A DNA stretch of 64,000 nt from Escherichia phage slur02. Where the stretch lies: sequence record NC_028927.1; one strand, written 5' to 3'. Positions 800-42,575 of the stretch are shown here, one piece after another. The translations under genes and the position numbers were made by a program. The notes beneath the pieces were generated by a model. The model did not search any database. It was given only the letters and a program-made list of their open reading frames with translations, and was not told where the DNA came from. Within the stretch, counting starts at the first letter, position 1. Each line of letters begins with the position of its first letter.

Positions 800-845
800 T
801 AGTTGTATAGTACCATGGAAGAACAGTCTTGTAAACAGTTTTGTG
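800..845 (-). promoter_or_regulatory. T4-type early promoter with conserved leader
   Basis: minus strand: A-rich upstream, GTTTAC (831-836), 17-18 bp spacer, TGGTACTATACAACTATCA extended -10. Confidence 0.6.
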
Positions 846-918
846 AAATTTTTTTAGGGAATCCAAAGGGTCCAGAATCATCTGTTTTTCATAAGTATAG
901 ATTTATATTACTTGTATG

Positions 919-939
919 AAAAAGGGACCCGGAGGTCCC
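919..939 (-). terminator. rho-independent terminator after gene 43
   Basis: minus strand GGGACC-UCCG-GGUCCC hairpin followed by UUUUU. Confidence 0.6.
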
Positions 940-952
940 TAGATTTATTCTA

Positions 953-3649
953 TCAGCCAAACAGGAAGTCTAACGAAGCTTTTTCTTCATAGTCCATACC
1001 AGCCGATTCACACATGCCCGCAAGCGGTTTAACAAACGATTTTTGGAACAAAGTTGAGTAGTCAATCCAAGACAGTACGTCAGAACGAATTTCTTTTGGA
1101 AGTTCTGTTCCCGACGGCCAAGCAATGCACTTGTCACCAAATGGATTTCCTTCACGCAATGGAAGAACCATTACCTTATTTCCATCCAAAATTGGAGCTA
1201 CACCTAAACCGCTAACAGCTCGACGATAAGTTAGCACACCACGAATATGGAACGGACATTTAAATCCTGGCCAACCTTTATCATCATATTTCGCTATATC
1301 GTTCGCAGTTTTTACTTCAGCAATAACTTTATAGTCAAGCTGACGATATTCTTTCTCGAAGTTTTTGTAATATTCTTGGACAGACTCTTCACCTTCCTGA
1401 AGAATACGACGAATACTTTCTTCGAGAGCTTCTTGCACTGCTTTTGGTGTTGAACTCTGCTGAGTTTCCATACCCATGATTTTTAGATGTGGTTCAGCAA
1501 ATCGCTTATCTTCCATATCATAAACGTTCAGAGCATAACGCTTTTTCGCTTTCCAAAATCCGCCAACGCCCTTTGAACCAAGTGGAGGGCAAGAAATAGC
1601 TTCACGGTCCATATGCATCAGATGCTCGCGGTTATTCATATAATCACATAACTCACGATATGCAACATCAATCATAGGTTCCATCTTTTTCTTACCGAAC
1701 TGATTCATGAATTCAACTAAATCATTTTGTTCTTTAAAGCGGTCAAGACCAACTTTTTCAATAACTTTATCTACGCAAACATATACCGAATCAGTATCAC
1801 CTGCCGCGATGAAATCTTCACCATTAGTTCCGCATACTTTATTCAGATATTCATTAATTTTACGAGCAATCCACTGAATACCAACTTGGCCGAAAATTGT
1901 GATAGCAGTAGCATTTCGCAAATCATAGTAACGGAAATGAATATTACCAAGAGCACCATAAAGACTGTTAATGAGAATTTTACGGTTCAGCTGATTTGTG
2001 TTAGCAAGTGTAGCTGCTTTTTCACATTCTTCAATCAGACTATTGAGAACAGATTCAGTATAATTCGATAGTTCATTTAAGAAATCATCACTGAACTTAA
2101 CATATCGTTCAACTTCTGGTTTAGTTGAACAGGACCCTGCGCCTTTCATAATAATCTTTTTAATAGCTTCGGCATTCATTTCTTCAGCGAACATTTTCTT
2201 TTTCCAATCTTTACGCTGGAAAAATACTTTAGCGATTTCCTTTGGAATGATACCTTCTTGATGCTTGTCATACATCCATCCATTCGGAGAACAAGAATAT
2301 TCATCACTCGGTTTAGGAGCTGTTCCTGCGATATATTCATGAATTGGATGAACTTTAAACTGCCCACGAATAGTCTCAGGACTAATGTTAACCTGACGAA
2401 TAATGCTCGGATACAGAGACGTCAAGTCAAAACTCATAATATATCGACGAGCAATTGGTTTAGGTTCAAACACAAATGCACCCGGAAAACTCTGTTTAAC
2501 GTGCGAACCTTGTTGAGGAATAACCTTATGTTCACTTTTCAGTGAGTTAAAAATAATAGCATCCCAAGTTTTAATAGGACTCATTACACCAGAAAAAGGC
2601 ATTTTAGCATAATAAGACATACTTAAAACTAGATCGATAAACCCACGAATTTTATCAATCGCTTGAACTGATTCTACGTCAATGATGTTATAACTAATGT
2701 ATCGTTGATGATTAGTCTCACGAAGTTTATTAATAGGACCGTCGTATGGTAATTTACCTTTTTTGGTTTCATGTTGAGCAACTGATTCCAAAGAGAATGA
2801 CGGCAAATTAGTAAATGCGAATTTCTTATACAAATCTAAATAATCAAGAATAGATACGCCATCAATAGAATAAATTTCTTTGCTGCCGTACATATTTTGA
2901 ATTAGTTTAGATTTTACTCGACCGATTGGAGAGAAGCGTTTCATACTGCGTTCACCGAGAATCATTTTAACACGATTCATAATATACGGAACGTCAAATC
3001 CCTCAATATTCCAACCAGTAAAAATAGCAGGTCGTTTCTGTTCCCAGAGATTGATATATTCCATGAGCATATCACGCTCATTATCGAATGGCATATAAAT
3101 TACTCGGTCAAGAATTTCTTGAGGAACTTCATCACCACCTTCACAGTCAAGCTTAGCAGCTAACTTTGCATCCCATTTTGATACTGAACCGTACATTGAA
3201 TTCAAAAGGTCGAAAACATAAAAACGATCATCAATTGAATCATAATGAGTGATAGCATCAATTTCATATTCTGCTTTCATTGGGTCAGGAAATTTATCGC
3301 CAGTAACCTCAATGTCACAGTTAGCTACACGAACAAATTTTCGGTCATAAACAATTTCTGAACCGTATGTATCACTGATATAAGCGAGTTTAAAATCGTT
3401 CATACCGAGAGCTTCGAGACCGATGTCTTCCATTCGTTTCATCCAATCTCGAGCATCTTTCATTGATGGAAATTTTTGAGGAGCGCAGTTTTTACCATAG
3501 ATGTCTTTGTACTTTGACTCTTCCTTACAATGCCTAAACATAGTTGGAAGATATTCTACTTCACGAGTACGTTCCTTTCCGTTTTCATCAATATAACGTT
3601 CAACAATGTTATTTCCGACTGTTTCGATAGAGATATAAAATTCTTTCAT
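953..3649 (-). CDS. 43: DNA polymerase (family B), gp43
   Basis: 898-aa ORF, near-identical to T4 gp43 as recalled (MKEFYISIETVGNNIVERY...); exonuclease and polymerase motifs. Confidence 0.97.
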   Translation of the reverse strand: MKEFYISIETVGNNIVERYIDENGKERTREVEYLPTMFRHCKEESKYKDIYGKNCAPQKFPSMKDARDWMKRMEDIGLEALGMNDFKLAYISDTYGSEIVYDRKFVRVANCDIEVTGDKFPDPMKAEYEIDAITHYDSIDDRFYVFDLLNSMYGSVSKWDAKLAAKLDCEGGDEVPQEILDRVIYMPFDNERDMLMEYINLWEQKRPAIFTGWNIEGFDVPYIMNRVKMILGERSMKRFSPIGRVKSKLIQNMYGSKEIYSIDGVSILDYLDLYKKFAFTNLPSFSLESVAQHETKKGKLPYDGPINKLRETNHQRYISYNIIDVESVQAIDKIRGFIDLVLSMSYYAKMPFSGVMSPIKTWDAIIFNSLKSEHKVIPQQGSHVKQSFPGAFVFEPKPIARRYIMSFDLTSLYPSIIRQVNISPETIRGQFKVHPIHEYIAGTAPKPSDEYSCSPNGWMYDKHQEGIIPKEIAKVFFQRKDWKKKMFAEEMNAEAIKKIIMKGAGSCSTKPEVERYVKFSDDFLNELSNYTESVLNSLIEECEKAATLANTNQLNRKILINSLYGALGNIHFRYYDLRNATAITIFGQVGIQWIARKINEYLNKVCGTNGEDFIAAGDTDSVYVCVDKVIEKVGLDRFKEQNDLVEFMNQFGKKKMEPMIDVAYRELCDYMNNREHLMHMDREAISCPPLGSKGVGGFWKAKKRYALNVYDMEDKRFAEPHLKIMGMETQQSSTPKAVQEALEESIRRILQEGEESVQEYYKNFEKEYRQLDYKVIAEVKTANDIAKYDDKGWPGFKCPFHIRGVLTYRRAVSGLGVAPILDGNKVMVLPLREGNPFGDKCIAWPSGTELPKEIRSDVLSWIDYSTLFQKSFVKPLAGMCESAGMDYEEKASLDFLFG

Positions 3650-3707
3650 AGATATTCCTTAGTTTATAGCCCGAGTTATTAGGCTCTTGATATATTATAC
3701 TCCAAAT

Positions 3708-3725
3708 AAGGGGCCGAAGCCCCTT
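3708..3725 (-). other. UUCG-tetraloop RNA hairpin between regA and gene 43
   Basis: minus strand AAGGGGC-UUCG-GCCCCUU; weak U-tract. Confidence 0.55.
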
Positions 3726-3727
3726 GC

Positions 3728-6415: not shown

Positions 6416-6805
6416 TTAACGATTAAAATCAGCAGCAATTGTTTCAGCAACAATTTGAGCAGCAACAATTAGACGTTCATCTGCATTACCGCAATAATCA
6501 TCTTCAAGGCGTTCACCACATGAAGTCATAATAAATTTGGCACCAGCGTTTAGAGATTCTGCCGTATGTTTGCGCATCAGTTCAATCCATTTATCACTCA
6601 CTTCACGATCGATAGCTTCATAATACGCATGACGAGCAGGTGCAGATTTAATTTTATTCTGAATAACTTCCATTGCGTTATCAGAAAGAGACAAAACCCA
6701 TGCTCGACGAATTTTATTTTGGTTTTGTGGATTTGATTCAGAACGCACGTGTTTTGGCTGAATATCTTTTACGTCAACAGTATAATTCACAGTAATTTTA
6801 GTCAT
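6416..6805 (-). CDS. rpbA: RNA polymerase-binding protein RpbA
   Basis: 129 aa; positional ortholog between 45 and 46. Confidence 0.7.
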
Positions 6806-10380: not shown

Positions 10381-11582
10381 TATTTTGTAATAATGTCAAA
10401 CTGTTCTTTAAAGCAGAAGCTTGAATCTTGATGCTGATACAAAAATTCATACGCTTTTTCTCGCTCACGGTCATAAAGAGCTCGGTCAGATGACAGTTCT
10501 TTAATACGTTCAAACGTTGATTCCATATCATTTTCATCAAACCAAACGATACCGCTATCATGCGAGGTCAAAGGAGTATTATCAACACGGAATTTTAAAT
10601 TTTCGCCAGTAGATTTCCAAAATACCGGAATTGTTCCACATGCACCAAGCTCGAGGTGAGTATATTCTAAAGAGCGCTGTAAATATTTTTTGTCCAACTT
10701 ACTCAACTGATAACCAAATCCGGATTTACTCATACGTTCAAGCATTTCGCTATTTACATAACGGTCAAGAATTTGCGTTGGCAAATTAGGAGCAATTTTA
10801 ATTTGGTCTACTTGATGAAGACGATAATACTCGTATGGAATTCCTTTTTCTTTAATAGGAATGAACGCTGGAGAACGTTCCAGACCTTCCATAATAGTAC
10901 TTAGTCCTGCAGGTTTAAGATGTTTTTCGTGAAAATCAAACATCTGATAAAAACCTTTCCATGTAGTCGTACGACCAATCCAGCGGTTGATATTCATATT
11001 AATTTCAGAAACATCTTTCCAGTAGGTTGACCGAACCTTCGCAATATCCATAGGAGGCTGAAAGTTATATACTGTCGGCGCTTCTTCAATATCATCAAAC
11101 AAAGAAACTGTTTCAGGATACCATTCTTTCATCAGAACTTTATTAAAATCACCATTATCAGAATGGCTAAAAATAACATCAGCTCGACGAACAGTTTCTT
11201 CTAATCCCAAATTTCGACGCAAAGAAAGAGAAGAATGGTCATGCTGATAAACTACAACACGAACAGAAGGTTTAATGTTATCAATAATTTTTTTATAGTT
11301 ATTAATAGTGTCTTCTTCAACCGAAGTAGCAGGAACTGAATTGATAATTAGAATATCACAATCATTTACCAGCTTAAGTGTTTTATCGTATTCTTTTGAC
11401 AATAAAACCGGAATTGAAAATGATTTATAATCATGTGCACAGTTACGAGTAAATGATTTATCTTTAGCATAAACCAAAGTTACTTCATGACCATTTTTAA
11501 TAAACCAATCACGTTGCTCAAGAGAAAATTTAGTTACACCACAACCTTCAAGACCTCGAGCCATAAAAATACATACTTTCAT
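10380..11582 (-). CDS. agt: DNA alpha-glucosyltransferase
   Basis: 400 aa; T4 agt size and position after gene 47. Confidence 0.88.
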   Translation of the reverse strand: MKVCIFMARGLEGCGVTKFSLEQRDWFIKNGHEVTLVYAKDKSFTRNCAHDYKSFSIPVLLSKEYDKTLKLVNDCDILIINSVPATSVEEDTINNYKKIIDNIKPSVRVVVYQHDHSSLSLRRNLGLEETVRRADVIFSHSDNGDFNKVLMKEWYPETVSLFDDIEEAPTVYNFQPPMDIAKVRSTYWKDVSEINMNINRWIGRTTTWKGFYQMFDFHEKHLKPAGLSTIMEGLERSPAFIPIKEKGIPYEYYRLHQVDQIKIAPNLPTQILDRYVNSEMLERMSKSGFGYQLSKLDKKYLQRSLEYTHLELGACGTIPVFWKSTGENLKFRVDNTPLTSHDSGIVWFDENDMESTFERIKELSSDRALYDREREKAYEFLYQHQDSSFCFKEQFDIITK

Positions 11583-11635
11583 TTAATATCCTCTTTGTTT
11601 TGGTTTATTTTACCAAAATTTTATAAAGCAATATA

Positions 11636-13145: not shown

Positions 13146-13154
13146 GGATATCAG

Positions 13155-13424
13155 TTATCTAAGTAAACAGTATGCTTGGAATACTTTTTCCATCATCTTT
13201 TTAAATTCATGAATATCTATATAATGACTAGTTAGATCAGCATGATATAAAAAGTCTAAAAACTTTTCATGTGTGCTAACATATTCGCTTTCATTTAATT
13301 CAGAAACATGGCTTTCCCAATATCCAACACCAGTCTTATTTGGGAAAAATGAAATTTTCATGCATTGATCAACATAGAAAATGCCATAATTTTCAATAGT
13401 AATAGAAATATTAATAAATTTCAT
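13155..13424 (-). CDS. hypothetical protein
   Basis: 89-aa ORF. Confidence 0.4.
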   Translation of the reverse strand: MKFINISITIENYGIFYVDQCMKISFFPNKTGVGYWESHVSELNESEYVSTHEKFLDFLYHADLTSHYIDIHEFKKMMEKVFQAYCLLR

Positions 13425-14978: not shown

Positions 14979-15431
14979 TTAATCTTCTATGATATCTCTA
15001 TCATATCCAAGTGAAATGAGAGTTTCTTTGAAGTGTTTAATGTTCTTTTGTCTAGAATCATTAATGAAAATGACTGGATAACGAATGTTAAGAGATGTGA
15101 ATCCAGCGCGTTTAGCAAGAGATACAATCAGTGGACGATCATACTCAATCTTACCGTTATTTGTAAGAACTTTATAGAAAGTAAAAGGAGCATTGAGCTC
15201 CTTTAGAAGTTTTGTAACTGATTGACATCCAGGACAACGACCTACTTCATCTGGAATTCCATAGACTTCAATCTTATTCTTTAAGTTCGAGTTTTGTTCC
15301 ACGAGAAATAATTCCTTGGTAAGCCCAATAAGGAGGATTAACAGAATCCTCACCAGAGTTTTCTTCAGGAAAATAAACCTGGATAACAAATCCAGACGCA
15401 TCAAAGGTAAAATAAACCGTAGGTAGTTCAC
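14979..15431 (-). CDS. nrdH: glutaredoxin-like NrdH (true N-terminus uncertain; probably only the last ~95 codons)
   Basis: CPGC redox motif in KIEVYGIPDEVGRCPGCQ; adjacent to nrdG/nrdD; track ORF overlaps upstream ORF, no canonical in-frame start found after 15274. Confidence 0.55.
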   Translation of the reverse strand: MNYLRFILPLMRLDLLSRFIFLKKTLVRILLILLIGLTKELFLVEQNSNLKNKIEVYGIPDEVGRCPGCQSVTKLLKELNAPFTFYKVLTNNGKIEYDRPLIVSLAKRAGFTSLNIRYPVIFINDSRQKNIKHFKETLISLGYDRDIIED

Positions 15432-15585
15432 CTAACAATTCGGCACGAGTATTAATTTCTTCGAGATCTCGTTCACGTCCAGCCCAAAAACTAGGATTTA
15501 GACTACATTCGTAAAAATAATAGTCATTACCGAACATATCAAAACCCTTCCAACTCTCTACCACATACCGCTCAAAACTAATCAT
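15274..15585 (-). CDS. hypothetical protein
   Basis: 103-aa ORF. Confidence 0.45.
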   Translation of the reverse strand: MISFERYVVESWKGFDMFGNDYYFYECSLNPSFWAGRERDLEEINTRAELLGELPTVYFTFDASGFVIQVYFPEENSGEDSVNPPYWAYQGIISRGTKLELKE

Positions 15586-15587
15586 AA

Positions 15588-15803
15588 TTAAGCCTTTTTA
15601 TCAAGAACAGAATTCAGCTTGTTAGTAATTTTATCCAGACGCTCATTAAACTCACTAGAAGATAAGCCCTTTTCTGGAGAAATTAAACTAATAACGAAAA
15701 ATATAGCAATAAAAGGAATAAGGAAAATAGCTCCAACTGCCATAAACAGAAAGAATGTTACAGTTGTAAGAAAATCAGCTAAACCTTTACGAAATTTATA
15801 CAT
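15588..15803 (-). CDS. small membrane protein
   Basis: 71 aa with a long hydrophobic segment. Confidence 0.45.
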   Translation of the reverse strand: MYKFRKGLADFLTTVTFFLFMAVGAIFLIPFIAIFFVISLISPEKGLSSSEFNERLDKITNKLNSVLDKKA

Positions 15804-15918: not shown

Positions 15919-16389
15919 TTAATCATGTTTCCACACCCCATCGGTATTTGACCAAAGTCGCTGATTATCTGATCCTCGCCACAGCTTTTTAGTCGGAAGA
16001 TTTTTCTCATACTTCCCATCAATAATAACATCAACATATTTAAGCATTTCTAGTTGTTTAATATCTTCAAACTTATATCCTGTCCACAACCAAATGCTTT
16101 TATTGGGATAAAGATTTTTTACTGTTTGAACCACAGAGTGAATCACATCTCTGTTATCAGGATAAAGAGGGTCACCCCCAGTTATAGTTAATCCTTCTAT
16201 ATAATCATTATTCAAACATTCAATTAATTGTTCTAGTGTTTCACCAGTGAATGGAACACCATTTCTAGCATTCCATGTTGATTTATTATAACACCCTTCG
16301 CATTTATGCAAACAACCCGTAACGAAAAGAACGACCCTGCAACCAGGGCCATTCACAAAATCGCAAGGATAAAATCTATCATAATTCAT
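15919..16389 (-). CDS. nrdG: anaerobic ribonucleotide reductase activase NrdG
   Basis: 156 aa; radical-SAM CxxxCxxC (CLHKCEGC); overlaps nrdD stop. Confidence 0.9.
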   Translation of the reverse strand: MNYDRFYPCDFVNGPGCRVVLFVTGCLHKCEGCYNKSTWNARNGVPFTGETLEQLIECLNNDYIEGLTITGGDPLYPDNRDVIHSVVQTVKNLYPNKSIWLWTGYKFEDIKQLEMLKYVDVIIDGKYEKNLPTKKLWRGSDNQRLWSNTDGVWKHD

Positions 16390-18203
16390 TGGTGTTTAAC
16401 CCTATGCATGATTTCTTTATTTTTACCGAGATTAAATCCGCGTTCGTTCGGATTTCCCAAATAACCACATGTTCTTCTTATTGTGTTCATCTTTTTAGGA
16501 TCAGTTTCTCCACAGATAGAACAAACAAATCCGTTTTCAGTAGGAGTCATTTCATGGGTACTTCCGCATGTAAAACATTTATCTACTGGCATATTAACAC
16601 CAAAATAATCTAAATGTTGTGCAGCATAATCCCAGACGGCCTCAAGCCCCTTTAAATTGTTTTTCATATCAGGAAGTTCAACATAAGAAATGTGACCACC
16701 TGTCGCAATGAAATGATATGGCGCTTCACGAGAAATCTTTTCAAACGGAGTAATATTTTCTTCTACTGAAACATGGAAACTGTTAGTGTACCAGCCTTTA
16801 TCGGTAACATCCTTTACATTTCCGTATTTTTCTGTATCGAGTTTACAGAAGCGATAACAAAGGTTTTCAGCAGGAGTAGAATATAAACTAAAAGCAAATC
16901 CGGTTCTTTCAGTCCACTGTTTAAGATGAGCATTCATTTTAGTTAAAATTTCTCGTCCAATATCACGACCGACAAGAATATTCAATTCGTGAATACCAAT
17001 GTATCCTAAAGACACTGAACTTCTACCGTTTTTAAATAACTCAATTATGTCGTCATCAGGTTTAAGACGAACCCCGAATGCACCTTCTTGGTAAAGAATA
17101 GGAGCAACAGTTGCTTTAACTCCTTTTAAGGAACTAATTCTACACATCAAAGCTTCAAAACATAAATCCATTCGTTCATTGAACAATTCGATAAATTTCT
17201 GTTCATTGAACTGTGTTCCAATATAAGAATCTAATGCGATACGAGGAAGATTCAGTGTTACAACACCGAGATTATTACGTCCATCAAGAATTTCATTGCC
17301 AGTCGAATCTTTCCATACGCCCAAGAAACTACGGCAACCCATTGGAGAAACAGGAACAGATGAACCAGTGATAGCTTTATTATTCTTAGCTGAAATAATA
17401 TCAGGATACATCCTTTTGCTTGCGCACTCTAGAGCAAGTTGCTTAATGTCGTAATTCGGATCGTCTTTATAAAGATTAACGCCTTCTTCAACGAACATAA
17501 CAAGCTTAGGGAAAATAGGAGTTATTCCATCACGACCAAGACCTTTAATACGATTTTTCAGAATTGCTTTCTGAATCATTCGTTCAGTCCAGTCAGTTCC
17601 CGTACCAAATGTAATTGTTACAAAAGGAGTTTGTCCGTTTGAACTAAAGAGAGTATTTACTTCATATTCATAAGCTTGGAATGCATCGTATACGTCTTTT
17701 TCTGTTTTAGATTGAGCATAATTCAGTGCATCGGCGATTTGCCATTTTTCTGCATCCTCAATATGTTTTGCATAGGTGCGTTTAACATAAGGAGAAAGTA
17801 CTTTATCTACATTCGCAAAAGTCGTTCCGCCGTATTGGTGAGAAGCAACCTGTGCAGTAATTTGTGCCATAATTGCAGTAGCAACTCCAATTGATTTAGG
17901 AGTTTCAATCTGTGCATTACCAAGCTTAAATCCGTTCTCAAGCATTCCTTTTAAATCTACTAAACAGCAATTAGTAAATGGAAGAGCAGGGGAATAATCA
18001 ATATCATGGAAATGAATAATTCCGCTTTCATGCGCTTTCATAATAAAAGACGGGACCATATTTTTGGCAATGTGTTTAGACACAATACCAGCCATAAGGT
18101 CCCGTTGAGTTGGAAAAACACGAGAATCTTTATTAGCATTCTCGTTTAAAAGGTCTTTATTAGTTTTATGAATCAATCCTTCAATTTCTTTTTCAATTGT
18201 CAT
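16386..18203 (-). CDS. nrdD: anaerobic ribonucleotide reductase NrdD, uninterrupted
   Basis: 605 aa contiguous; glycyl-radical motif RTCGYLG near C-terminus; C-terminal Cys cluster. Confidence 0.95.
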   Translation of the reverse strand: MTIEKEIEGLIHKTNKDLLNENANKDSRVFPTQRDLMAGIVSKHIAKNMVPSFIMKAHESGIIHFHDIDYSPALPFTNCCLVDLKGMLENGFKLGNAQIETPKSIGVATAIMAQITAQVASHQYGGTTFANVDKVLSPYVKRTYAKHIEDAEKWQIADALNYAQSKTEKDVYDAFQAYEYEVNTLFSSNGQTPFVTITFGTGTDWTERMIQKAILKNRIKGLGRDGITPIFPKLVMFVEEGVNLYKDDPNYDIKQLALECASKRMYPDIISAKNNKAITGSSVPVSPMGCRSFLGVWKDSTGNEILDGRNNLGVVTLNLPRIALDSYIGTQFNEQKFIELFNERMDLCFEALMCRISSLKGVKATVAPILYQEGAFGVRLKPDDDIIELFKNGRSSVSLGYIGIHELNILVGRDIGREILTKMNAHLKQWTERTGFAFSLYSTPAENLCYRFCKLDTEKYGNVKDVTDKGWYTNSFHVSVEENITPFEKISREAPYHFIATGGHISYVELPDMKNNLKGLEAVWDYAAQHLDYFGVNMPVDKCFTCGSTHEMTPTENGFVCSICGETDPKKMNTIRRTCGYLGNPNERGFNLGKNKEIMHRVKHQ

Positions 18204-19322: not shown

Positions 19323-19532
19323 TTAACCCCGAAGCTTATTAAGTTCTTCATAATCAATCCAGGATTCTAATCCTGATGGCAAATCAGATTCAATTTCCCA
19401 AAGAAGTTCTTCAATTTTCTGAAGACGATCTAGTTCTTCGGCTGGAATAGTAACCATTGACGGAGCTCGTGATACACTAATATCGTAAATCATATTTACC
19501 CCAGTTTGACCATGCAATCGCCGTATTTCCAC
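19323..19532 (-). CDS. hypothetical protein (49.x)
   Basis: 69-aa ORF. Confidence 0.4.
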   Translation of the reverse strand: MEIRRLHGQTGVNMIYDISVSRAPSMVTIPAEELDRLQKIEELLWEIESDLPSGLESWIDYEELNKLRG

Positions 19533-25476: not shown

Positions 25477-25499
25477 TTTCTGTTCCTCCGTAGTTGATA

Positions 25500-25540
25500 G
25501 TTGTATAGTACCACAGAGGAACAGTCTTGTAAACCACTAA
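25500..25540 (-). promoter_or_regulatory. T4-type early promoter with conserved leader
   Basis: GTTTAC (25529-25534), GGTACTATACAACTATCAACT, then GGAGG RBS. Confidence 0.6.
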
Positions 25541-25851
25541 AAGAAACTTCTTTCACAATTTTTTCCACTGAACCACGCGCTCACTGCTTTCTTAGTCTCA
25601 GGAGCAGTGTTATCCATAAACCATTCAAAGGCAGCCTTTTTATGATTCTGGAGGGCTTCTCGGGCTTTAATCTGCTCACGGTCTATTAACACTAACATAT
25701 GAGCCTTTCTTGTCACCAAGGGCTTCTTATGATTTTTTGAATACTCCCAGTCATTTGTCCATCGCATTGTCGTTGCGAATTGAAATACAGCTTCTTTAAT
25801 TTTAGTTTCGTAAATTTCACGAGCCTTTGAGTATAACATCATTACCTCCAT
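25537..25851 (-). CDS. hypothetical protein
   Basis: 104-aa ORF. Confidence 0.45.
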   Translation of the reverse strand: MEVMMLYSKAREIYETKIKEAVFQFATTMRWTNDWEYSKNHKKPLVTRKAHMLVLIDREQIKAREALQNHKKAAFEWFMDNTAPETKKAVSAWFSGKNCERSFF

Positions 25852-25940
25852 TTACCAGTTTAATTCTAGTCATCTTTTTGATGGCAGTCCATATAATCTA
25901 TTTCTGAACTGCCTTTTTATCTTAGAAGTCCTCTTATGAA

Positions 25941-26909: not shown

Positions 26910-26939
26910 TTTATTCTCCAAATCCGTATCAGTTGATAG

Positions 26940-26980
26940 TTGTATAGTACCATAAAGCTTTATGCTTGTAAACAACTTTG
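26940..26980 (-). promoter_or_regulatory. T4-type early promoter with conserved leader
   Basis: GTTTAC (26968-26973), GGTACTATACAACTATCAACTGATAC, leader near-identical to the 800-845 copy. Confidence 0.6.
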
Positions 26981-26995
26981 TGAAAAATTTTTGAA

Positions 26996-27022
26996 ATAAA
27001 AAAAGGGAGCCCGAAGGCTCCC
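26996..27022 (-). terminator. rho-independent terminator after the nucleotidyltransferase gene
   Basis: minus strand GGGAGCC-UUCG-GGCUCCC then UUUUUUU. Confidence 0.65.
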
Positions 27023-27024
27023 TA

Positions 27025-28038
27025 TCATTTATAATAACTTCGGTGGTTTTCAAGATAAACCTGTTCGAGGAAATTATTCCAAAAGCTCATATCTACTGTT
27101 TTAGGCATACCATTCTTAGAAGCTTCAGTAGATGCTGCTTCTACTTGATCGACCACATCTTCCAAAAACTCTTGAACCGTTTTAAATGGATGTTTACCCA
27201 ACTTCACGTCGAGAATAAATGGAGCGTCTTGAAGTGGATAAACCAAGTCACCAGTTTTGTAAATTTCCAATAGTTGAAGTCCACCACGACAAGCATGGCT
27301 CAGAGCTTTCCAGTCAATGCCTTCATTGGCTTCGGCCTTTCGAGCGCGTTCACCATATTCAGCATCTAATTTGTTCAGTGACTGCTTAAGCTCAATAAGA
27401 GAAAGCGTTGTCTGATATTTACGACCCAACACTGTGTAAAACGTCTGTGGGCCTGTTTTCTCATGATTATGGAACACCCATTCACAGAATTCGTTTTCTG
27501 GAAGACGATGCTTAATATCTTCAACTTTAGTACGACGCTGCTTAATGGAACCGTCTTCTTGGTAATCAACCCATTGCTCAGGGATTTGATTAACTACTTT
27601 CAATACATCACGTAATGCAGCCAAACGAGAACCCTTGACACCGTATTTAGAAGCTTGCTTGCGGACATATCCTAAATAGGATTTCATGTTAGTCGTATAA
27701 AAACGAGAACGGTTGTCTTGAATAAACTTCCACACATCAGGCAAATCTGATTTAACTACTAGCTCAGGTGGAGTGTGAAGCATATCCAATGCTACGGTTT
27801 CACCATCTGCTGCTAATTTAAAGAAATATTTAAGACTGTATAGTTCATGGTCAATATCATCTTTAGTGTTTTTAGATGATGTATTGTTAGTATTTTTACT
27901 CATATGCTCTTTAACATTTCCGATAAGAATATCGCGAGCAGGAGGAACAAAGATTTCTTTAAAATCTACATCAGATTCTGGGGTAGAAGTTCCATAAAGA
28001 TGACTACCAAAATAGCTTTTCATTACTGTTTTCATCAT
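27025..28038 (-). CDS. predicted nucleotidyltransferase (Pol-beta-like fold)
   Basis: 337 aa; N-terminal GSHLYGTSTPESDVD matches the hG[GS]...D.D NTase signature. Confidence 0.5.
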   Translation of the reverse strand: MMKTVMKSYFGSHLYGTSTPESDVDFKEIFVPPARDILIGNVKEHMSKNTNNTSSKNTKDDIDHELYSLKYFFKLAADGETVALDMLHTPPELVVKSDLPDVWKFIQDNRSRFYTTNMKSYLGYVRKQASKYGVKGSRLAALRDVLKVVNQIPEQWVDYQEDGSIKQRRTKVEDIKHRLPENEFCEWVFHNHEKTGPQTFYTVLGRKYQTTLSLIELKQSLNKLDAEYGERARKAEANEGIDWKALSHACRGGLQLLEIYKTGDLVYPLQDAPFILDVKLGKHPFKTVQEFLEDVVDQVEAASTEASKNGMPKTVDMSFWNNFLEQVYLENHRSYYK

Positions 28039-28496
28039 TCAGCCTTATATTCAATAACAGGACATACTTTAGCTTTACGAGCTTTTAAAAATTCGACGAT
28101 AATCGATTTCTTGGGTTGAATAGGAGGTAAACCTTTATACGCTCTATCAATATTTTCTACGTGTAAAGCATAATCCTTTTTCCATTTATAATCTTTATAT
28201 TTTTCACGCAAATGTGCAGGAATAACAAATGAACCGATAATAAGTAAAACAACCAAAAGCGCAAGTATAAATGCTGATGGAAGCAAAGTCCATAAACTAC
28301 CGAAAATAAGCCAACGTTGTAGGCTTTCTGCACAAATAATTGTTAACCCTACGAGTATAGCACACCCAAAAATAGAAACGAAAAATGTAGGAATGGCAAT
28401 AGACCAAAAATATGCGCATAATGTCTTAGGTCGTTGCCATTCATCGTTAAACAATTTGAATAATTTATAGTGCCAAGAGTTTTCATTAATAATCAT
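28035..28496 (-). CDS. integral membrane protein
   Basis: 153 aa; three or four hydrophobic helices. Confidence 0.5.
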   Translation of the reverse strand: MIINENSWHYKLFKLFNDEWQRPKTLCAYFWSIAIPTFFVSIFGCAILVGLTIICAESLQRWLIFGSLWTLLPSAFILALLVVLLIIGSFVIPAHLREKYKDYKWKKDYALHVENIDRAYKGLPPIQPKKSIIVEFLKARKAKVCPVIEYKAE

Positions 28497-28498
28497 AA

Positions 28499-29020
28499 TT
28501 ATCCTTTCATTGAAGGCGTAATGGTTGTTAAATACTTAATCATAGCTTCAGCTTCTGATTTTGATAATGAAATTTCTCCATTGTTTTGACGAATAGAAAT
28601 AAAATCCGGATGACGGTCACCACCAGCTTTTAAAACACACATATAAGTATCAACTTCACCTTCAATATTTGAAATGATTGAAGCAGTTCCACATGAATGT
28701 GGTTTTTGATAAATCAATGCAGCTTTTCTTCCACCATTTGACTGTTCATAGGCTTTTAATACATCAAACAAATCAGTTCTTTTATCAATAGCTAAAATGT
28801 TATTTTCATCTTCAATGTTAAATCCTTCGGATACTTCATAAAGCGTTACCCATAAATCACCGATGTCAATAACAGCATTTACTTTTCCACGGCTTTCAAG
28901 AGTATGACAAATTTTCTTGATTTCGTCATAACTCATTTTAATAATATCATCTCCTTGACTAAGGAAGATGTCATTTTTAAATTCAACACGAATTAAACCA
29001 CTTTCACTTGAAATAAACAT
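28499..29020 (-). CDS. hypothetical protein (tandem paralog A)
   Basis: 173 aa; C-terminus resembles next ORF (EAEAMIKYLTTITPSMKG vs EAIALKTYLDSVIPTMISK). Confidence 0.5.
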   Translation of the reverse strand: MFISSESGLIRVEFKNDIFLSQGDDIIKMSYDEIKKICHTLESRGKVNAVIDIGDLWVTLYEVSEGFNIEDENNILAIDKRTDLFDVLKAYEQSNGGRKAALIYQKPHSCGTASIISNIEGEVDTYMCVLKAGGDRHPDFISIRQNNGEISLSKSEAEAMIKYLTTITPSMKG

Positions 29021-29026
29021 ATTTCC

Positions 29027-29572
29027 TCACTTTGAAATCATAGTTGGAATAACAGAATCAAGATAAGTCTTTAGTGCAATAGCTTCGTCTTTGGTAAATG
29101 TGACAATATGTGCTCGAAAATCATCAATTTGACGAATAGTTAAGACATCTCCATCTTCATAACATTTTGATACGTTTAAAACAGTTTCATCATTCTGATT
29201 GCAAGCGTTAGTAATAATAGCATTGCAATTTTTAAACCATTTTAAACTATGTTTTCTTTCATTAGAATAATAAAAATATTTAATCTTATCTATAAAACTA
29301 TCCCAATGGATAACTGATAAGCATATTGACTCGCTTTCAATATTAAATCCTGGGCATGAAGAATAAAAATGAATTTTATGCTTATCATTAATGCTTACAA
29401 TTTTATCAGTATAAGGATTTTCAATTTTGGTTAAATGAATGATTTCACTAGGCGTAAAATACAGCATATCGTCTTCTTGTGTCAAACGATACATATTATT
29501 TACTTTTTCTATAGCCAATTCACCAAAAAGTGAACTAACTTCTAATACTAATCGTTTCGCCGCTACCGTCAT
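29027..29572 (-). CDS. hypothetical protein (tandem paralog B)
   Basis: 181-aa ORF. Confidence 0.5.
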   Translation of the reverse strand: MTVAAKRLVLEVSSLFGELAIEKVNNMYRLTQEDDMLYFTPSEIIHLTKIENPYTDKIVSINDKHKIHFYSSCPGFNIESESICLSVIHWDSFIDKIKYFYYSNERKHSLKWFKNCNAIITNACNQNDETVLNVSKCYEDGDVLTIRQIDDFRAHIVTFTKDEAIALKTYLDSVIPTMISK

Positions 29573-29699
29573 TACATACTCCTCTGAATCATATCAATAA
29601 TGTTGTTTACCAGATTATAAGTAAACATTGGGTAATTATATTGAATCATCACATACACAACAAACAAAACTTTCATTCTCTTCTCCTTGGCAGTTGACA

Positions 29700-29738
29700 A
29701 GATTACTATACCATAACCTTGCCAACTTGTAAACCATT
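29700..29738 (-). promoter_or_regulatory. T4-type early promoter
   Basis: GTTTAC (29729-29734), spacer, ATGGTATAGTAAT. Confidence 0.55.
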
Positions 29739-29899
29739 AAATGACGTTTTCAATAAAATTCTGAAGCTTTGTATGAGCATCAACCATGATTTTCATTTCT
29801 TCTTTGGCGAAAGCTATACCTCTTTCCCGAGAAGAACACTCATAGTCAGAAACTGCATTAGCATATTCTTCAATTAACTTCATTAAAAACATCTGCTTT

Positions 29900-30094
29900 T
29901 CAGTTTTCATTATTCCACCTAATCATTTCAAGATATTGAACTAACTTAGCTTTAGATTTATCCAAATCCTTTTTAGCTGCTTCTATACCGTCGTATGAAT
30001 ATCCTTCACAATGCTCAACTGCTAATTGATATGAATCTATTTCAATATCACGTGCTAATTTAATGATTTTTTCAAACTGTTCGCGTGTTAGCAT
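29900..30094 (-). CDS. hypothetical protein
   Basis: 64-aa ORF. Confidence 0.4.
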   Translation of the reverse strand: MLTREQFEKIIKLARDIEIDSYQLAVEHCEGYSYDGIEAAKKDLDKSKAKLVQYLEMIRWNNEN

Positions 30095-30096
30095 AC

Positions 30097-30336
30097 TTAA
30101 ACTCTCGTATTATGATCGATAATTTCATCAAGAAACATATCTAACGCTTCTACAGCATTATTAACTTTATCTTCAAGTTCTTCAATACTTTTATTTGCAA
30201 TGCCTGACGAAAACCAAGCAAAGTCACTAAGTTCCTCATCTGCTTTACGAATTAAAGCTACCAATTCCTTAATTTTATCCGCTTGTTCGATACTAATCAT
30301 TATTCCACCACATATGAAAGAGAGAATATTGCACAC
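30097..30336 (-). CDS. hypothetical protein (start possibly at 30300)
   Basis: 79-aa ORF overlapping the next gene. Confidence 0.4.
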
Positions 30337-30488
30337 GCCATGTGAGTTGCAACTTCATCACACATATTATAACGTTTCTTAAGAAATTCTACAAGTTCTT
30401 CACTAGTAACTTCATCCATGTCGACGAAAAAATCACCATTAATGATGACGTAGATATTTCCTTCTTGATTAAGTGCTTCAATTTTCAT
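30300..30488 (-). CDS. hypothetical protein
   Basis: ORF 30300-30533; true start ATG 30486-30488 ([17 protein letters not shown]) downstream of an early promoter. Confidence 0.45.
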
Positions 30489-30511
30489 GATGTTCTCCTC
30501 TTTATCCGATA

Positions 30512-30550
30512 GTTGTATAGTACCACAGCTCAAACGGAAAGTAAACCGGT
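30512..30550 (-). promoter_or_regulatory. T4-type early promoter with conserved leader
   Basis: GTTTAC (30541-30546), TGTGGTACTATACAACTATCGGA. Confidence 0.6.
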
Positions 30551-30554
30551 AAAA

Positions 30555-30579
30555 TGAAAAAAGTCTCCCGAAGGAGACT
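30555..30579 (-). terminator. rho-independent terminator after the rI.-1 ORF
   Basis: minus strand AGUCUCC-UUCG-GGAGACU then UUUUUU. Confidence 0.65.
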
Positions 30580-30583
30580 AATG

Positions 30584-30970
30584 TTATTCGAGGGAAAGAA
30601 GATACTTACTCTGGTAAAACATTCCAGTAATATCATCTATCGTGCTTTGGATGGCTGGAGGCATTTCTTTATAAATGCTGTTAGATTGGTCTAGTATGTG
30701 ATCAATCATTTTAATTGTGTCGGTAGGAAGTTTACTGGCATCTGGAATTGAAGGTGTGTATTTTCTACCAGAATACCCCAAATATTGCTCACCAAATTTA
30801 TCAATCAAATCTGGCAACTCGGAGAAAATAAAATCGTATGCTTTGTGTCTAGCATAACTTTTAGTTTCAAAATGTGCAGAATGAAAATAAGCTTGTGCAG
30901 CCATTAATAAACCTAAGTATTCATCTGCCTTTGAAGGTTTTCCACTTTGTGAAAAGTCGCTGAATTTCAT
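30584..30970 (-). CDS. hypothetical protein (rI.-1 position)
   Basis: 128 aa; immediately downstream of rI. Confidence 0.5.
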
Positions 30971-31260
30971 TCAGTCTCCAATTTAATGTTCATAATTCTA
31001 GCGTATGATTGTGCCATCTCCGCGCCTCGCTCTATACATTCAAAATCAGAAGAGCACGGGTCATTTTTATAGGTCGTTCTCATAAAACTATAGAATTGTT
31101 CAGACGATTCTACGCTTTTATTTTCAAAAAGCATATAAACGTGCCTAATACCAGATTCCATAAATTTATCAAAATGAGGATCGACATTCGCTTCAATCGG
31201 TGGAGATAAAACAAATGACAATCCTAGCATGGCAAATAGTGCCGTTGCTTTTAAGGCCAT
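30967..31260 (-). CDS. rI: lysis-inhibition regulator RI
   Basis: 97 aa with signal-anchor N-terminus; matches T4 RI as recalled. Confidence 0.85.
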   Translation of the reverse strand: MALKATALFAMLGLSFVLSPPIEANVDPHFDKFMESGIRHVYMLFENKSVESSEQFYSFMRTTYKNDPCSSDFECIERGAEMAQSYARIMNIKLETE

Positions 31261-31527: not shown

Positions 31528-32109
31528 CTAACCGAGCTTTTTAGTTAATTCATTCCAATGTTTTCTACACAAAGAAACATAAATTTCATCACCAATACAG
31601 ATTTGATTACCTTCTTTAACTGGTGTTCCATCTTCCATTAATCGAGCTGTCATAATCGCTTTTTTACCACAATGACAAACTGCTTTTAATTCAATAAGTT
31701 TATCTGCAATCGCTAAAAGTTCTTTAGAACCTTCAAATAATTTTCCAGCGAAATCAGTCCTTAATCCATAAGCCATAACAGGAACATTATATGTATCAAC
31801 AATTCGGCTCAATTGATGCACTTGTTCAGTTTTTAAAAACTGAGCTTCATCTACAAATACGCAATGAATATCTTTTTGTGCTTCAGCCCATTTATAGAAC
31901 TCGAAAATATCCATATCATCTGTAATAATATTCGCTTCCTGTTTAATTCCAATGCGAGAAACAACTTCACAGACAGAATCGCGAGTATCAATAGCAGGCT
32001 TAAGAACTAATACACTCATTCCACGTTCTTTATAATTATGTGCAGCAGTCAAAAGAGAAGCAGATTTTCCAGCATTCATTGCTGCATAAGTAAAAATTAA
32101 ACTCGCCAT
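31528..32109 (-). CDS. tk: thymidine kinase
   Basis: 193 aa; P-loop NAGKSAS; C-terminal Zn-binding Cys; matches T4 Tk as recalled. Confidence 0.93.
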   Translation of the reverse strand: MASLIFTYAAMNAGKSASLLTAAHNYKERGMSVLVLKPAIDTRDSVCEVVSRIGIKQEANIITDDMDIFEFYKWAEAQKDIHCVFVDEAQFLKTEQVHQLSRIVDTYNVPVMAYGLRTDFAGKLFEGSKELLAIADKLIELKAVCHCGKKAIMTARLMEDGTPVKEGNQICIGDEIYVSLCRKHWNELTKKLG

Positions 32110-32118
32110 ATCACCTTC

Positions 32119-32304
32119 TTAAAGCGTATTCACATAAGCTATTAATTCATTTTCTTTCTTATCAAACCGATCAGCAAATTCTTCCTGCTGTTCGGGAGAT
32201 AGCGGGCCGTATTCATCATAAAAGGTGTTTGCTTCTGTATGCTCATCTAGAAGTTCATGGATAAGCTCAAACAATTTATCTTTTTGTTCTTTACTCAGAC
32301 TCAT
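32119..32304 (-). CDS. hypothetical acidic protein (tk.1 position)
   Basis: 61-aa ORF. Confidence 0.45.
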   Translation of the reverse strand: MSLSKEQKDKLFELIHELLDEHTEANTFYDEYGPLSPEQQEEFADRFDKKENELIAYVNTL

Positions 32305-32470
32305 ATATTAATTTCCAGGAGTTTTAAGATAATTCGCTTTTGCTTAAATATTTCCATCGTTAAATGATCAATATCTTTTTGACCAATTCCAATAGCAAAA
32401 CCCTTATTTACGGCAAGTTCAATTAAATTATCAATATTGCGTAAAACTTCATAACGTAACTCAAAATTAT

Positions 32471-32683
32471 TCATTTTGGTTCACCTTCTTTAACGAAATC
32501 AGGATAAGGATAAAATCCTGAATAAAATCCTTCACCTTTATGATTGATGCATCCTTTATTAGAACAATAGCACCAATAATCGAAATCACAAGCCATTTCA
32601 TCGTTGCATAAAGCAAAAACAACCGGCCACTTACACTTTTCACAGTGGGCATTTTTAAGAATACTAGTTTGGCTCATAACCAT
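32471..32683 (-). CDS. Cys-rich small protein (tk.2 position)
   Basis: ORF 32471-32698, start likely internal Met; about 10 Cys. Confidence 0.45.
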   Translation of the reverse strand: MVMSQTSILKNAHCEKCKWPVVFALCNDEMACDFDYWCYCSNKGCINHKGEGFYSGFYPYPDFVKEGEPK

Positions 32684-34220: not shown

Positions 34221-34682
34221 TCATTGAGTTTTAATTACTGCTTTAGAAGCCTTTCCTGGTAAACGACGACTGTTGATAATTGCCATCCTGCATTGAAGTG
34301 ACGGGTCTTTGAACTTCTCATTAGGCTTACAAACCGTAAATCCAAGCCAAAGATTTCCATCTGTGATTTCTAAACGTCCAGGACGATATTCAACCCCATC
34401 AATAAAATCCTCGTCAATGTCAGGACGCGGAGGCATACTCAGGAATTCATTAACTTCTAAAACATGGTCTTTTATTTTATGGAATAATTCAAAAACATAT
34501 GTCTCATCAATCTCCCGTTGAATTGCACGATCAAGAAGATGTTGAGAATATTTTAGATGAAACGATGAGACTCCTGCTGCTTTTGATGCCTCACGAATCT
34601 CATTGTTAATTTGACGAAACTCCGACTCAAAGTGACGACGAAGCTTATTTCGACGGATAAAAACTTCTGTATTGATAGTCAT
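34221..34682 (-). CDS. regB: endoribonuclease RegB
   Basis: 153 aa; T4 regB size/position; early promoter upstream. Confidence 0.85.
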   Translation of the reverse strand: MTINTEVFIRRNKLRRHFESEFRQINNEIREASKAAGVSSFHLKYSQHLLDRAIQREIDETYVFELFHKIKDHVLEVNEFLSMPPRPDIDEDFIDGVEYRPGRLEITDGNLWLGFTVCKPNEKFKDPSLQCRMAIINSRRLPGKASKAVIKTQ

Positions 34683-34707
34683 GTTGTTCTCCTCTTAACT
34701 GATAGAA

Positions 34708-34742
34708 AAATTATACCACAGTCAAGAGGAAAAGTAAACAGT
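34708..34742 (-). promoter_or_regulatory. T4-type early promoter (regB)
   Basis: GTTTAC (34734-34739), spacer, TGTGGTATAATT. Confidence 0.6.
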
Positions 34743-35020
34743 TATTCTTTAAATCTAATCAATTTATTCATAGACTTTGAAACTTCTGCACGAACCTCAT
34801 GTAAGTTTTTAAGCTGTTCAAGACGCTGCTCATAGTAAGCAATTTCATCTTCTTCGAGACAGTCCTGTGAATCTTCTTTAAGATAGCGTGCATAGTCCTG
34901 GAAAGCTTTACGGACTACTTCCTGGAAGTCATCAAGACTTTGAATTTTCTTAGGAGCGGCAGATACACGACGAGGGGCAGTATAATACTCATAACCAAAC
35001 CCTGCACTTAATTGAGCCAT
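34742..35020 (-). CDS. hypothetical protein (vs.3 position)
   Basis: ORF 34742-35062, start likely internal Met. Confidence 0.45.
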
Positions 35021-37687: not shown

Positions 37688-38104
37688 TTAAATGTAAATA
37701 TTTTTACCGTAATACTTATACCAATGTGGTTTCATTAAAATTTTTTCATCAAGTCGTTGTTGACTCAATTTAATAGCTGATTTGCATGGATTATAATCAT
37801 TTTTCCATTCTACTGGAATATCGCTGATGTCAGGAACTTCAGTATCTTTTATACTGAACCCTCGTTTTAAGCATTCCGTTATAATGTCTAATTGACGCTT
37901 TCGCAAAAATTCTAACTTATCGTAAAAGAACGTAACATGACCAGAACCTAAAATAAACTCGGAAGATATTTTAAAATCTTTAACGCGCTTACCGTTTGCC
38001 ACATGCTTACGAACTATACCAAAAACACGTGGCAATTCACGGTATTCTGCGATTAAATGTTGATCAGCAAGTTCAGATACTAAAGTCAAATTAATACGAG
38101 TCAT
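37688..38104 (-). CDS. denV: endonuclease V (pyrimidine-dimer DNA glycosylase)
   Basis: 138 aa; matches T4 DenV as recalled ([17 protein letters not shown]...). Confidence 0.93.
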
Positions 38105-38121
38105 TTTATCCCTCCAAGTAA

Positions 38122-38162
38122 CTGTGAATATACTATCACAATTCTAGGAGAAAGTAAACAAC
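38122..38162 (-). promoter_or_regulatory. T4-type early promoter (denV operon)
   Basis: GTTTAC (38154-38159), spacer, TGTGATAGTATATTC. Confidence 0.55.
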
Positions 38163-38163
38163 T

Positions 38164-39132
<969 letters not shown>

Positions 39133-41620: not shown

Positions 41621-41956
41621 TTATTCTTCGTCTAGCTCGTCGATAAAGGCGTCGATGGCCTCGACAACGGCATCATTGATAGCCAATAAAATAAAATCAT
41701 CGTCAGTACCTTTAGAAGATTTTAAAGCATTGATATATGCTTGGTTGGCGAGTTCCCAAGCCTTTTTAAAATAAGGAGCTTCATCATCGGGGCCAACGAA
41801 ACGTACGCCTTCAAAGATACGGTTAGCATAATCCAATACCCACTGTACAGGCATGTTTTGAGAACGTTCGTTAAACTCTTTAAATTCCTTAGATTCAAAA
41901 AGCTCTTCAGGATAATCATTTCTATTACAAAAAGCTTTACTAAAGTTACGTTTCAT
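41621..41956 (-). CDS. hypothetical acidic protein (e.7 position)
   Basis: 111 aa; early promoter upstream. Confidence 0.45.
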   Translation of the reverse strand: MKRNFSKAFCNRNDYPEELFESKEFKEFNERSQNMPVQWVLDYANRIFEGVRFVGPDDEAPYFKKAWELANQAYINALKSSKGTDDDFILLAINDAVVEAIDAFIDELDEE

Positions 41957-41977
41957 AATGTTTTCCTTGTGATGATA

Positions 41978-42015
41978 AGTCTATAGTAACGCCTTCATAC
42001 TTAGATGTAAACTAT
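41978..42015 (-). promoter_or_regulatory. T4-type early promoter
   Basis: GTTTAC (42007-42012), spacer, GTTACTATAGACT. Confidence 0.5.
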
Positions 42016-42165
42016 TTCAACATCGCCTTTTGCTGTTTTATAACCTTCAGCCCAAGATACAACCGAGTTTTTATCTGAAGATTCAAATTCTGGCATTGGG
42101 CTTTCGCCAATGTTCACGCAGTATGTTTCTTCATTTTCGTCGAACCAAATAATTAAAGTAGTCAT
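42001..42165 (-). CDS. small hypothetical protein (54 aa)
   Basis: ATG with GGAG RBS; promoter-like sequence upstream; below track cutoff. Confidence 0.3.
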   Translation of the reverse strand: MTTLIIWFDENEETYCVNIGESPMPEFESSDKNSVVSWAEGYKTAKGDVEIVYI

Positions 42166-42233
42166 TTATTTCTCCGTTTCTGTATTTGTTTTGATAAGTC
42201 TATAATAACACCATCCTTGGTGTTTGTACACAA

Positions 42234-42497
42234 TTATTTCATATTATTGAAATATTCTTCTGCGATTTCGTCGTTATCATGGTAAACTTTAGAAGACAGT
42301 TTAACATAACCTTCAGCAGTGAACATGTTAATCACAACCTTTACAGTATACCACTGACCATCTTCATTACCCATTACTGCGTAAGTTTCAAACATCGGAT
42401 GGTCAGGACCGATAACTTTAATATCATTCACTGTACGACCGAAATCTTCTGAAACACATTTCATAAAGAAGTTGAACAGCTCACCGTAATTATCCAT
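42234..42497 (-). CDS. hypothetical protein (e.8 position)
   Basis: ORF 42234-42560; true start ATG 42495-42497 (MDNYGELF, GGAG RBS) downstream of an early promoter. Confidence 0.45.
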   Translation of the reverse strand: MDNYGELFNFFMKCVSEDFGRTVNDIKVIGPDHPMFETYAVMGNEDGQWYTVKVVINMFTAEGYVKLSSKVYHDNDEIAEEYFNNMK

Positions 42498-42535
42498 TTC
42501 ATTCTCCAAGTTGTTTTCTGTATCAGTAGTTGATA

Positions 42536-42575
42536 GTTGTATAGTACCATGGAAGGGCAAGGATGTAAACCGTTT
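42536..42575 (-). promoter_or_regulatory. T4-type early promoter with conserved leader
   Basis: GTTTAC (42565-42570), ATGGTACTATACAACTATCAACTACTGATACAGA. Confidence 0.6.

Follow-up and report, generated by a model that had tools for sequence, protein, structure and literature searches.

Why should one promoter, together with the first part of its transcript, recur almost unchanged in front of several unrelated genes of the same phage? The question is raised by a stretch of 64,000 nucleotides from Escherichia phage slur02 (NC_028927.1; hereafter the window), where an initial annotation had described an early promoter and leader of about 45 bp that is reused at five or more sites, and had proposed selection on the leader RNA itself or a recent spread of promoter cassettes by recombination. 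Our analysis indicates that the repeats are, very probably, T4-type early promoter-leaders shaped both by a shared function and by recombination among the copies. The observations on which this reading is built are the sequence anatomy of the sites, their orthology with T4, the matches to the RegB motif, hybrid junctions, cassette swaps and lineage-specific homogenisation. We note that the feature as a whole is already established for T4 and its relatives, i.e. it is nothing new.

The window is of Tequatrovirus type, i.e. T4-like, and since nearly all of its genes lie on the minus strand, the repeats are read as reverse complements. Gene product (gp) numbers follow the annotation of Escherichia phage slur04 (NC_042130.1, Tequatrovirus), which is 100% identical over the 6,001 bp compared (window positions 25000-31000); a window coordinate equals the NC_042130.1 coordinate minus 10513. 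The 17-mer GGTACTATACAACTATC occurs exactly five times, always on the minus strand (798-814, 25496-25512, 26935-26951, 30508-30524 and 42532-42548). As 5 occurrences stand against 0.09 expected, and 0 of 100 shuffled sequences gave five, the repeat is real and far above chance, and all five copies listed by the initial annotation were found again. They are called here by their approximate positions, i.e. 800, 25500, 26940, 30510 and 42535. Altogether about 14 promoters of the T4 early type lie on the minus strand of the window, including a diverged sixth relative at 45946-46030 (Table 1).

From their sequence, the five sites can be assigned to early promoters with a transcribed leader that are orthologs of T4 early promoters, which bears out how the initial annotation had named them. 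In the complete T4 genome the same core is found at the orthologous imm.1, nrdC.8, nrdC.10 and e.8 positions, and at mobD.5 with one mismatch. Further exact cores precede motA (identical to the core of the five sites), frd.3 and ndd.6 in T4, so that T4 has seven exact copies in all, to which the mobD.5 variant is added. At the nrdC.10 site, the record of a related phage independently lists a terminator and a promoter. All five copies have GTTTAC, a 17-bp spacer, TACTAT and TGG (TGn at -15 to -13); the A+T fraction of the UP region (-40 to -60) is 0.64-0.91, and TTTCACAAA(A/G)(C/T)(T/G) stands directly 5' of the -35 element in three copies. The T4 early (Pe) promoters have the same arrangement, i.e. 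an UP element, GTTTAC at -36 to -31, TGn, a -10 element TAYWAT and a start at A. They have been described as UP/-35/TGn/-10 promoters with additional consensus regions (Hinton 2010, PMC2988021), with GTTTAC located at -36 to -31 (Nolan 2006).

A consensus was derived from our own scan of the T4 genome (30 early promoters). It reads tttaaAAAAtaTTTcA.AAAgTtGTTTACAt...TGTGgTAtTATA...cTATCAAcTa and includes TG at -15/-14 as well as cT followed, from the start site on, by ATCAAcTa (together -2 to +8). Because the 30-promoter consensus contains it, conservation to about +8 is a trait of the whole promoter class. A consensus of T4 early promoters and ribosome-binding sites was reportedly compiled by Liebig and Ruger in 1989. 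The start site was placed seven bases after the -10 element, a rule that yields 133295 for the T4 promoter named Pe133295 in GenBank. Nothing essential sets the five sites apart from other T4 early promoters: they form a consensus-perfect subclass with TACTAT and ACAACT, whereas the other early promoters in the window have TATAAT, TATTAT or TAGTAT as -10 element and other discriminators. A generic sigma-70 scan was non-discriminating in this A/T-rich genome (29 sites vs 25 expected); only its matches flagged for TG are the real modules, and the copy at 30510 was missed.

How far do the copies agree? The five copies were aligned with their flanks, as the initial annotation had suggested, and 34 of the 177 columns are invariant. 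The invariant sequence is GGTTTAC, which holds the -35 element, and the block TGGTACTATACAACTATC, whose 18 bp extend from -15 to +3 and comprise the extended -10 TGG, the -10 element TACTAT, the discriminator ACAACT and A(+1)TC. A likeness of the -35 and -10 hexamers only is therefore rejected by the invariant -15 to +3 block. Pairwise identity from -15 to -1 is 100% among the five, compared with 79% (-15 to -7) and 40% (-6 to -1) among the other early promoters, and from +1 to +9 it is 76% vs 41%. Further out the distinction disappears: the five copies are no more alike than other early promoters in the spacer (-29 to -16; 39% vs 34%) and from +10 to +22 (37% vs 42%). In other words, the description of a module nearly verbatim at all sites overstates the identity: it holds for GGTTTAC and TGGTACTATACAACTATC only, and elsewhere longer identity is found between pairs only. 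Copies 800 and 26940 differ by 3 mismatches from -15 to +39, i.e. through the fourth codon, and copies 800 and 25500 by 3 mismatches from -36 to +8 including the spacer. The segment ATACRGA is present in three copies (800, 26940 and 42535), and divergence sets in after +9 at 25500 and after +3 at 30510. The leader quoted as common to all sites, AACTGATACAGA...GGAG, is accordingly a composite that no single copy matches, and along the leader only copies 800 and 26940 agree almost letter for letter.

The peptide GTIQLS, which had been noted as an N-terminal extension of unrelated genes, is encoded by GGTACTATACAACTATCA. Every one of the five copies has it in the reading frame of the real ATG, and in three of them only does it fall within a mechanically called open reading frame (ORF). 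Between the GGT of the core and the ATG, each of the five copies has a distance divisible by three (42, 36, 42, 36 and 51 nt; spans 770-815, 25474-25512, 26907-26951, 30486-30524 and 42495-42548), with no in-frame stop. Leader-length variants among orthologs also lie 3 nt apart (AACTAATAC, AACTGATAC and AACTACTGATAC). This spacing may be due to chance or common descent; T4 motA breaks the rule.

The leader consists of three parts, i.e. the bases from +1 to about +9 (ATCAACTAC), a middle part TGATACRGA... and the 3' end GGAGAATAAAATG. The first part can be counted with the general early-promoter consensus. At the 3' end, a Shine-Dalgarno (SD) sequence with GGAG and an ATG are reached 22-37 nt after +1 in all five copies, and GGAGAATAAAATG corresponds, as far as its sequence tells, to the published optimal RegB/S1 site fused to the SD and the start codon. 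The RegB/S1 consensus is GG/AGRAYARAA (Uzan and Miller 2010, PMC3014915; Durand 2006, PMC1702504). For T4, Durand 2006 (PMC1702504) names GGAGAAUAAAA as the optimal site, reports no more than moderate cutting at nrdC.8 and finds that nothing specific is required 5' of GGAG. In the 64-kb window GGAGRAYARAA has 3 perfect matches against 0.38 expected (772-782, 26909-26919 and 45948-45958), all of them in module leaders, where the optimal GGAGAATAAAA of the modules at 800, 26940 and 45970 doubles as SD. The e.8 leader (42535) has one mismatch to the consensus, and the nrdC.8 (25500) and mobD.5 (30510) leaders fit less well. The window also carries regB, the endoribonuclease gene whose product would be expected to cleave the GGAG sites in the module leaders.

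The leaders are predicted to be essentially unfolded, with minimum free energies of 0 to -2.6 kcal/mol and z-scores of -0.26 to +1.5 relative to shuffled sequences, so that the RegB site is modelled as single-stranded. An Rfam search of the window returned tRNAs only and no leader match. An explanation by RNA structure was rejected on these two grounds, i.e. leaders that fold no better than shuffled ones and an Rfam result confined to tRNAs.

Substitution rates were calculated for 11 orthologous promoter pairs between the window and T4. The -35 element has none, -15 to +9 has 1.1%, the UP element 3.7% and the spacer 6.5%. Between +10 and the ATG the value is 3.4%, and since the first codons of the adjoining coding DNA have 3.3%, change in the middle of the leader is about as fast as in the DNA around it. 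The mid-leader is unstructured, diverges at background rate and is replaced by other sequences in more distant lineages, i.e. it is without sign of special constraint. The suggestion of selection on the leader RNA itself consequently holds for the first nine or so transcribed bases and for GGAGAATAAAATG, and finds no support in the middle of the leader. A T4 module between motB and cef, on the minus strand (L004, ca. 6555-6640), has a degenerate -35 element; its spacer CATCAGTAGTTGAT repeats, in inverted orientation, the beginning of the module's leader (ATCAACTACTGATG-like), which creates an inverted repeat around the -10 element, followed by an e.8-type leader and GGAGAATAAAATG.

Recombination among the copies is indicated by the junctions between the window and T4. 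A blastn comparison gave 17 indel or replacement events with 34 synteny boundaries. Four of the 17 events are bounded inside early-promoter modules, and 6 of the 34 boundaries lie in modules, which span about 2% of the window. The gene ipI is absent from the window, and the lone promoter at 45970 joins the upstream half of T4 P-ipI to the downstream half of T4 P-trna.4, with the crossover within the shared ATTTCACAAAGTTGTTTACATA. The outer flanks of the two promoters of the gp107 cassette match the single e.7 promoter of T4. The extra ORF gp023 lies directly 3' of the module at 800, with its junction at ATGAAAAT, and at the internal-protein/denV locus the T4 synteny breakpoint (38108-38115) is within the leader that follows promoter 38123.

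In six of the 17 events the difference involves an intron or the gene of a homing endonuclease (mobB, mobC, I-TevII, mobD, segB and segC). Homing endonucleases were considered as the cause of the module-linked indels and rejected, because these six differences are separate and have other boundaries. Compared with T4, the window is without mobB, mobC, segB, segC and the nrdD intron with I-TevII, and mobD is replaced by two other ORFs; the differences lie at 11573-11598, 16369-16389, 17665-17668, 28039-29002, 43600-44472 and 52279-52284. Other insertions or replacements, at 13149-13410, 15278-15603, 19324-19707 and 32109-32673 (near gene 55/55.1, nrdH/55.8, 49.2-49.3 and tk.1-tk.2), have boundaries that are not at early-promoter modules. 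A terminator stem-loop of 33 nt, AGCCCCGACCGAAAGGTTGGGGCTTTTTGGTAT, is present as a direct repeat on the minus strand (42699-42731 and 43258-43290), and T4 has one copy. The repeats flank an insertion of about 525 bp that is missing in T4 and holds the ORF gp109, which is preceded by TATAAATA, a T4 late-promoter motif. Here the recombination site appears to be the terminator repeat rather than a promoter. The tRNA cluster at 43972-44990 (minus strand) contains 10 tRNAs according to Rfam and 11 according to RefSeq, compared with 8 in T4, and includes His, Asn, Tyr and Met, which are outside the list of the T4 record.

Comparison across phages points in the same direction. The IMG/VR contigs, T4 and the window together contain 43 modules before at least 13 different genes, and a scan of IMG/VR for the 18-mer TGGTACTATACAACTATC gave no match outside T4-like contigs. 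The spacer type varies at orthologous sites: frd.3 has the nrdC.10 type in T4, where the two genes share an identical 15-nt spacer, and the e.8 type elsewhere, and the gp023-like gene has two spacer types. The leader of the gp023-like gene also varies in length, and its length variants recur among paralogs. Among the motA and nrdC.10 orthologs in IMG/VR, genes with a protein 98-100% identical to the query from T4 or the window have entirely different promoter-leader cassettes that are joined at GGAGAATAAA-ATG, and more distant lineages share a leader of their own, e.g. TATTACYTCATACCAAACAAATAGAAAYTCGGAGAA. Over the stretch that begins at the extended -10 and ends at the ATG, identity is 0.77-0.91 between motA and nrdC.10 of the same genome and 0.65-0.76 between orthologs from different lineages. 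A higher likeness between paralogs than between orthologs is the pattern that concerted evolution would be expected to leave. Degraded modules in IMG/VR contig 2974787500 (L019, ca. 3250-3301; L032, ca. 2790-2836) have lost the UP element and -35 by deletion, and their terminator stem-loop is fused to the remaining spacer and an intact -10 and leader; they resemble the 'half PeSLs' of Comeau 2014 (PMC4122927). The sequences support recombination that has continued between long-established copies, as opposed to a recent spread in the genome at hand. In other words, the proposal of a recent spread of cassettes by recombination stands with respect to recombination, as the hybrids and cassette swaps indicate, and a recent spread within the window phage is rejected because T4 has these copies too, at the corresponding loci.

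The closest published model is that of the promoter-early stem-loop (PeSL) cassettes, i.e. composites of a terminator stem-loop and an early promoter that end in an SD and a start codon and that have the consensus TTTACW-N17-TAYWAT in the PST/T4 pair (Arbiol 2010, PMC2839356; Comeau 2014, PMC4122927). PeSLs occur in hyperplastic regions, where they adjoin indels, and the crossovers that have been mapped fall between the -10 element and the ATG (PMC2839356, PMC4122927). By sequence comparison our observations match this model: TTTACW-N17-TAYWAT fits, an SD and an ATG form the 3' end in 5/5 copies, indels are found as neighbours, and a chimera is present where an ORF was gained or lost. A stem-loop with a T-run lies directly upstream in two of the five copies (26940 and 30510); it is about 130 nt upstream at 800 and absent at 25500 and 42535. 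The nrdC.10 module (26940) is a full promoter/stem-loop composite. Because the stem-loop adjoins two of the five copies, PeSL membership is full for part of the set, whereas membership among the T4 early promoters holds for all five.

The mechanism that we propose is as follows. Host sigma-70 RNA polymerase would read these consensus-perfect early promoters, which are composed of an A/T-rich UP element, GTTTAC, a 17-bp spacer, TGG, TACTAT and an A/T-rich ACAACT, with the start at the A of ATCAAC. The short, presumably unstructured leader of 22-37 nt would end in a GGAG that is at once Shine-Dalgarno and RegB/S1 cleavage site, so that the promoter would turn the early gene on at once and RegB would turn its mRNA off a few minutes later. 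The likeness of the copies would then have three causes, i.e. constraint on the region in contact with polymerase (roughly -60 to +9), constraint on the RegB site of 11 nt and its spacing to the ATG, and repeated homologous recombination or gene conversion, which would homogenise the unconstrained positions and move ORF cassettes as in the PeSL model.

Several points weigh against this picture. The enrichment of breakpoints was calculated with the whole window as background, and it would be much weaker if only intergenic DNA were used. Not every copy is a complete PeSL, as an adjacent terminator is found in two of five only, and the comparison that speaks for concerted evolution covers two genes in few lineages. 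The restriction of CTGATACRGA to early leaders in T4 (6 of 6 occurrences) is explained by linkage to the promoter, and would be by a function too. Finally, it is by analogy with T4 that the window phage is assigned active promoters, their exact +1 and cleavage by RegB.

The restriction of CTGATACRGA also speaks for a different explanation, according to which the mid-leader AUCAACUACUGAUACRGA is a functional RNA element, e.g. for processing or for binding by a factor of the phage or the host, that is kept by selection on the RNA and co-regulates the early mRNAs of motA, imm.1/gp023, nrdC.10, e.8 and ndd.6. All six T4 occurrences of CTGATACRGA stand directly after an early promoter core, the element recurs before different genes in several Tequatrovirus-like contigs, and the five copies are more alike from +1 to +9 than other early promoters are. 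We nevertheless regard it as unlikely: the element is missing in two of the five copies, its orthologs have 3-nt indels and A/G changes, and its divergence equals that of the coding DNA next to it. It has neither a predicted structure nor an Rfam match, RegB/S1 has no need of it, and the same genes have unrelated A/C-rich leaders in other lineages. Slightly less probable still, in our estimate, is the broader possibility that the sequence has a function as a signal and is not just carried along by recombination, be it a recognition site for RNA binding or processing or a DNA segment favoured in recombination. In T4 it is common to motA, imm.1, nrdC.10, e.8 and ndd.6 and occurs nowhere else in the genome, and if it were such a signal it would mark a hidden regulon among the earliest genes.

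Two further explanations concern recombination itself. Pure convergence, in which each promoter was separately optimised for host RNA polymerase with no exchange between copies, agrees with the invariance of those elements that contact polymerase (-35, TGn, -10, discriminator, +1 to +3), and with the low substitution from -15 to +9 and at -35 relative to the spacer. It is very improbable, as it does not account for paralogs that share spacers whose sequence is unconstrained (copies 800 and 25500 agree at 11 of 14 positions, and T4 frd.3 and nrdC.10 at all 15), for hybrid promoters at indel junctions, or for whole-cassette replacement before identical genes. Least credible of all is that the modules are a true mobile element, i.e. 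targets of a dedicated site-specific recombinase or nuclease rather than substrates of general homologous recombination. The junctions are indeed concentrated in a small number of short segments, in the UP/-35 and SD-ATG regions, but the crossover point varies with the event, i.e. UP/-35 at 45970, the ATG at gp023 and the -10 element or leader in the others, and it always lies within shared sequence, as predicted if exchange is driven by homology. The modules have no associated recombinase, and the homing-endonuclease indels are events of their own. The coordinates of the features are collected in Table 1.

Table 1. Early-promoter modules and related features of the window (ORF, open reading frame; SD, Shine-Dalgarno; all on the minus strand).
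Feature	Position	Strand	Details
Module before gp023 (extra ORF ahead of imm.1)	770-860	-	UP 837-860; -35 GTTTAC 831-836; TGGTACTAT 807-815; +1 at 800
Leader end of the gp023 module		-	RegB/SD site GGAGAATAAAA 772-782; ATG 770-772
Module before nrdC.8 ortholog	25474-25558	-	+1 at 25498; leader ATCAACTACGGAGGAACAGAAA; ATG 25474-25476; adjoining terminator absent
Module before nrdC.10 ortholog	26907-27023	-	stem-loop 27004-27023; +1 at 26937; perfect RegB site 26909-26919; ATG 26907-26909
Module before mobD.5 ortholog	30486-30579	-	stem-loop 30562-30579; +1 at 30510; leader ATCGGATAAAGAGGAGAACATC; ATG 30486-30488
regB with its own early promoter	34221-34763	-	gene 34221-34682; +1 at 34703
Early promoter driving denV, orthologous to the T4 promoter before ipIII	38102-38183	-	+1 at 38123
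Two early promoters bracketing gp107 (T4 without gp107)	41953-42255	-	+1 at 42195 and 41976
Module before e.8 ortholog	42495-42594	-	+1 at 42534; 37-nt leader ATCAACTACTGATACAGAAAACAACTTGGAGAATGAA; ATG 42495-42497; adjoining stem-loop absent
Diverged sixth module before trna.4	45946-46030	-	TGATACTATTACCCT ATCAACTACTGAGGAGAATAAA ATG

Seen as T4-type early promoter-leaders, the repeats would be a textbook case of a lytic phage that reuses one optimised on/off cassette before many early genes, a cassette in which a very strong host-type promoter is combined with an accessible ribosome-binding site and its own RegB cut site. For annotation, the modules can serve to mark early transcription units, and they explain spurious N-terminal ORF extensions such as GTIQLS. 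At the same time, the short repeats would act as recombination points at which accessory genes are carried into and out of the genome.

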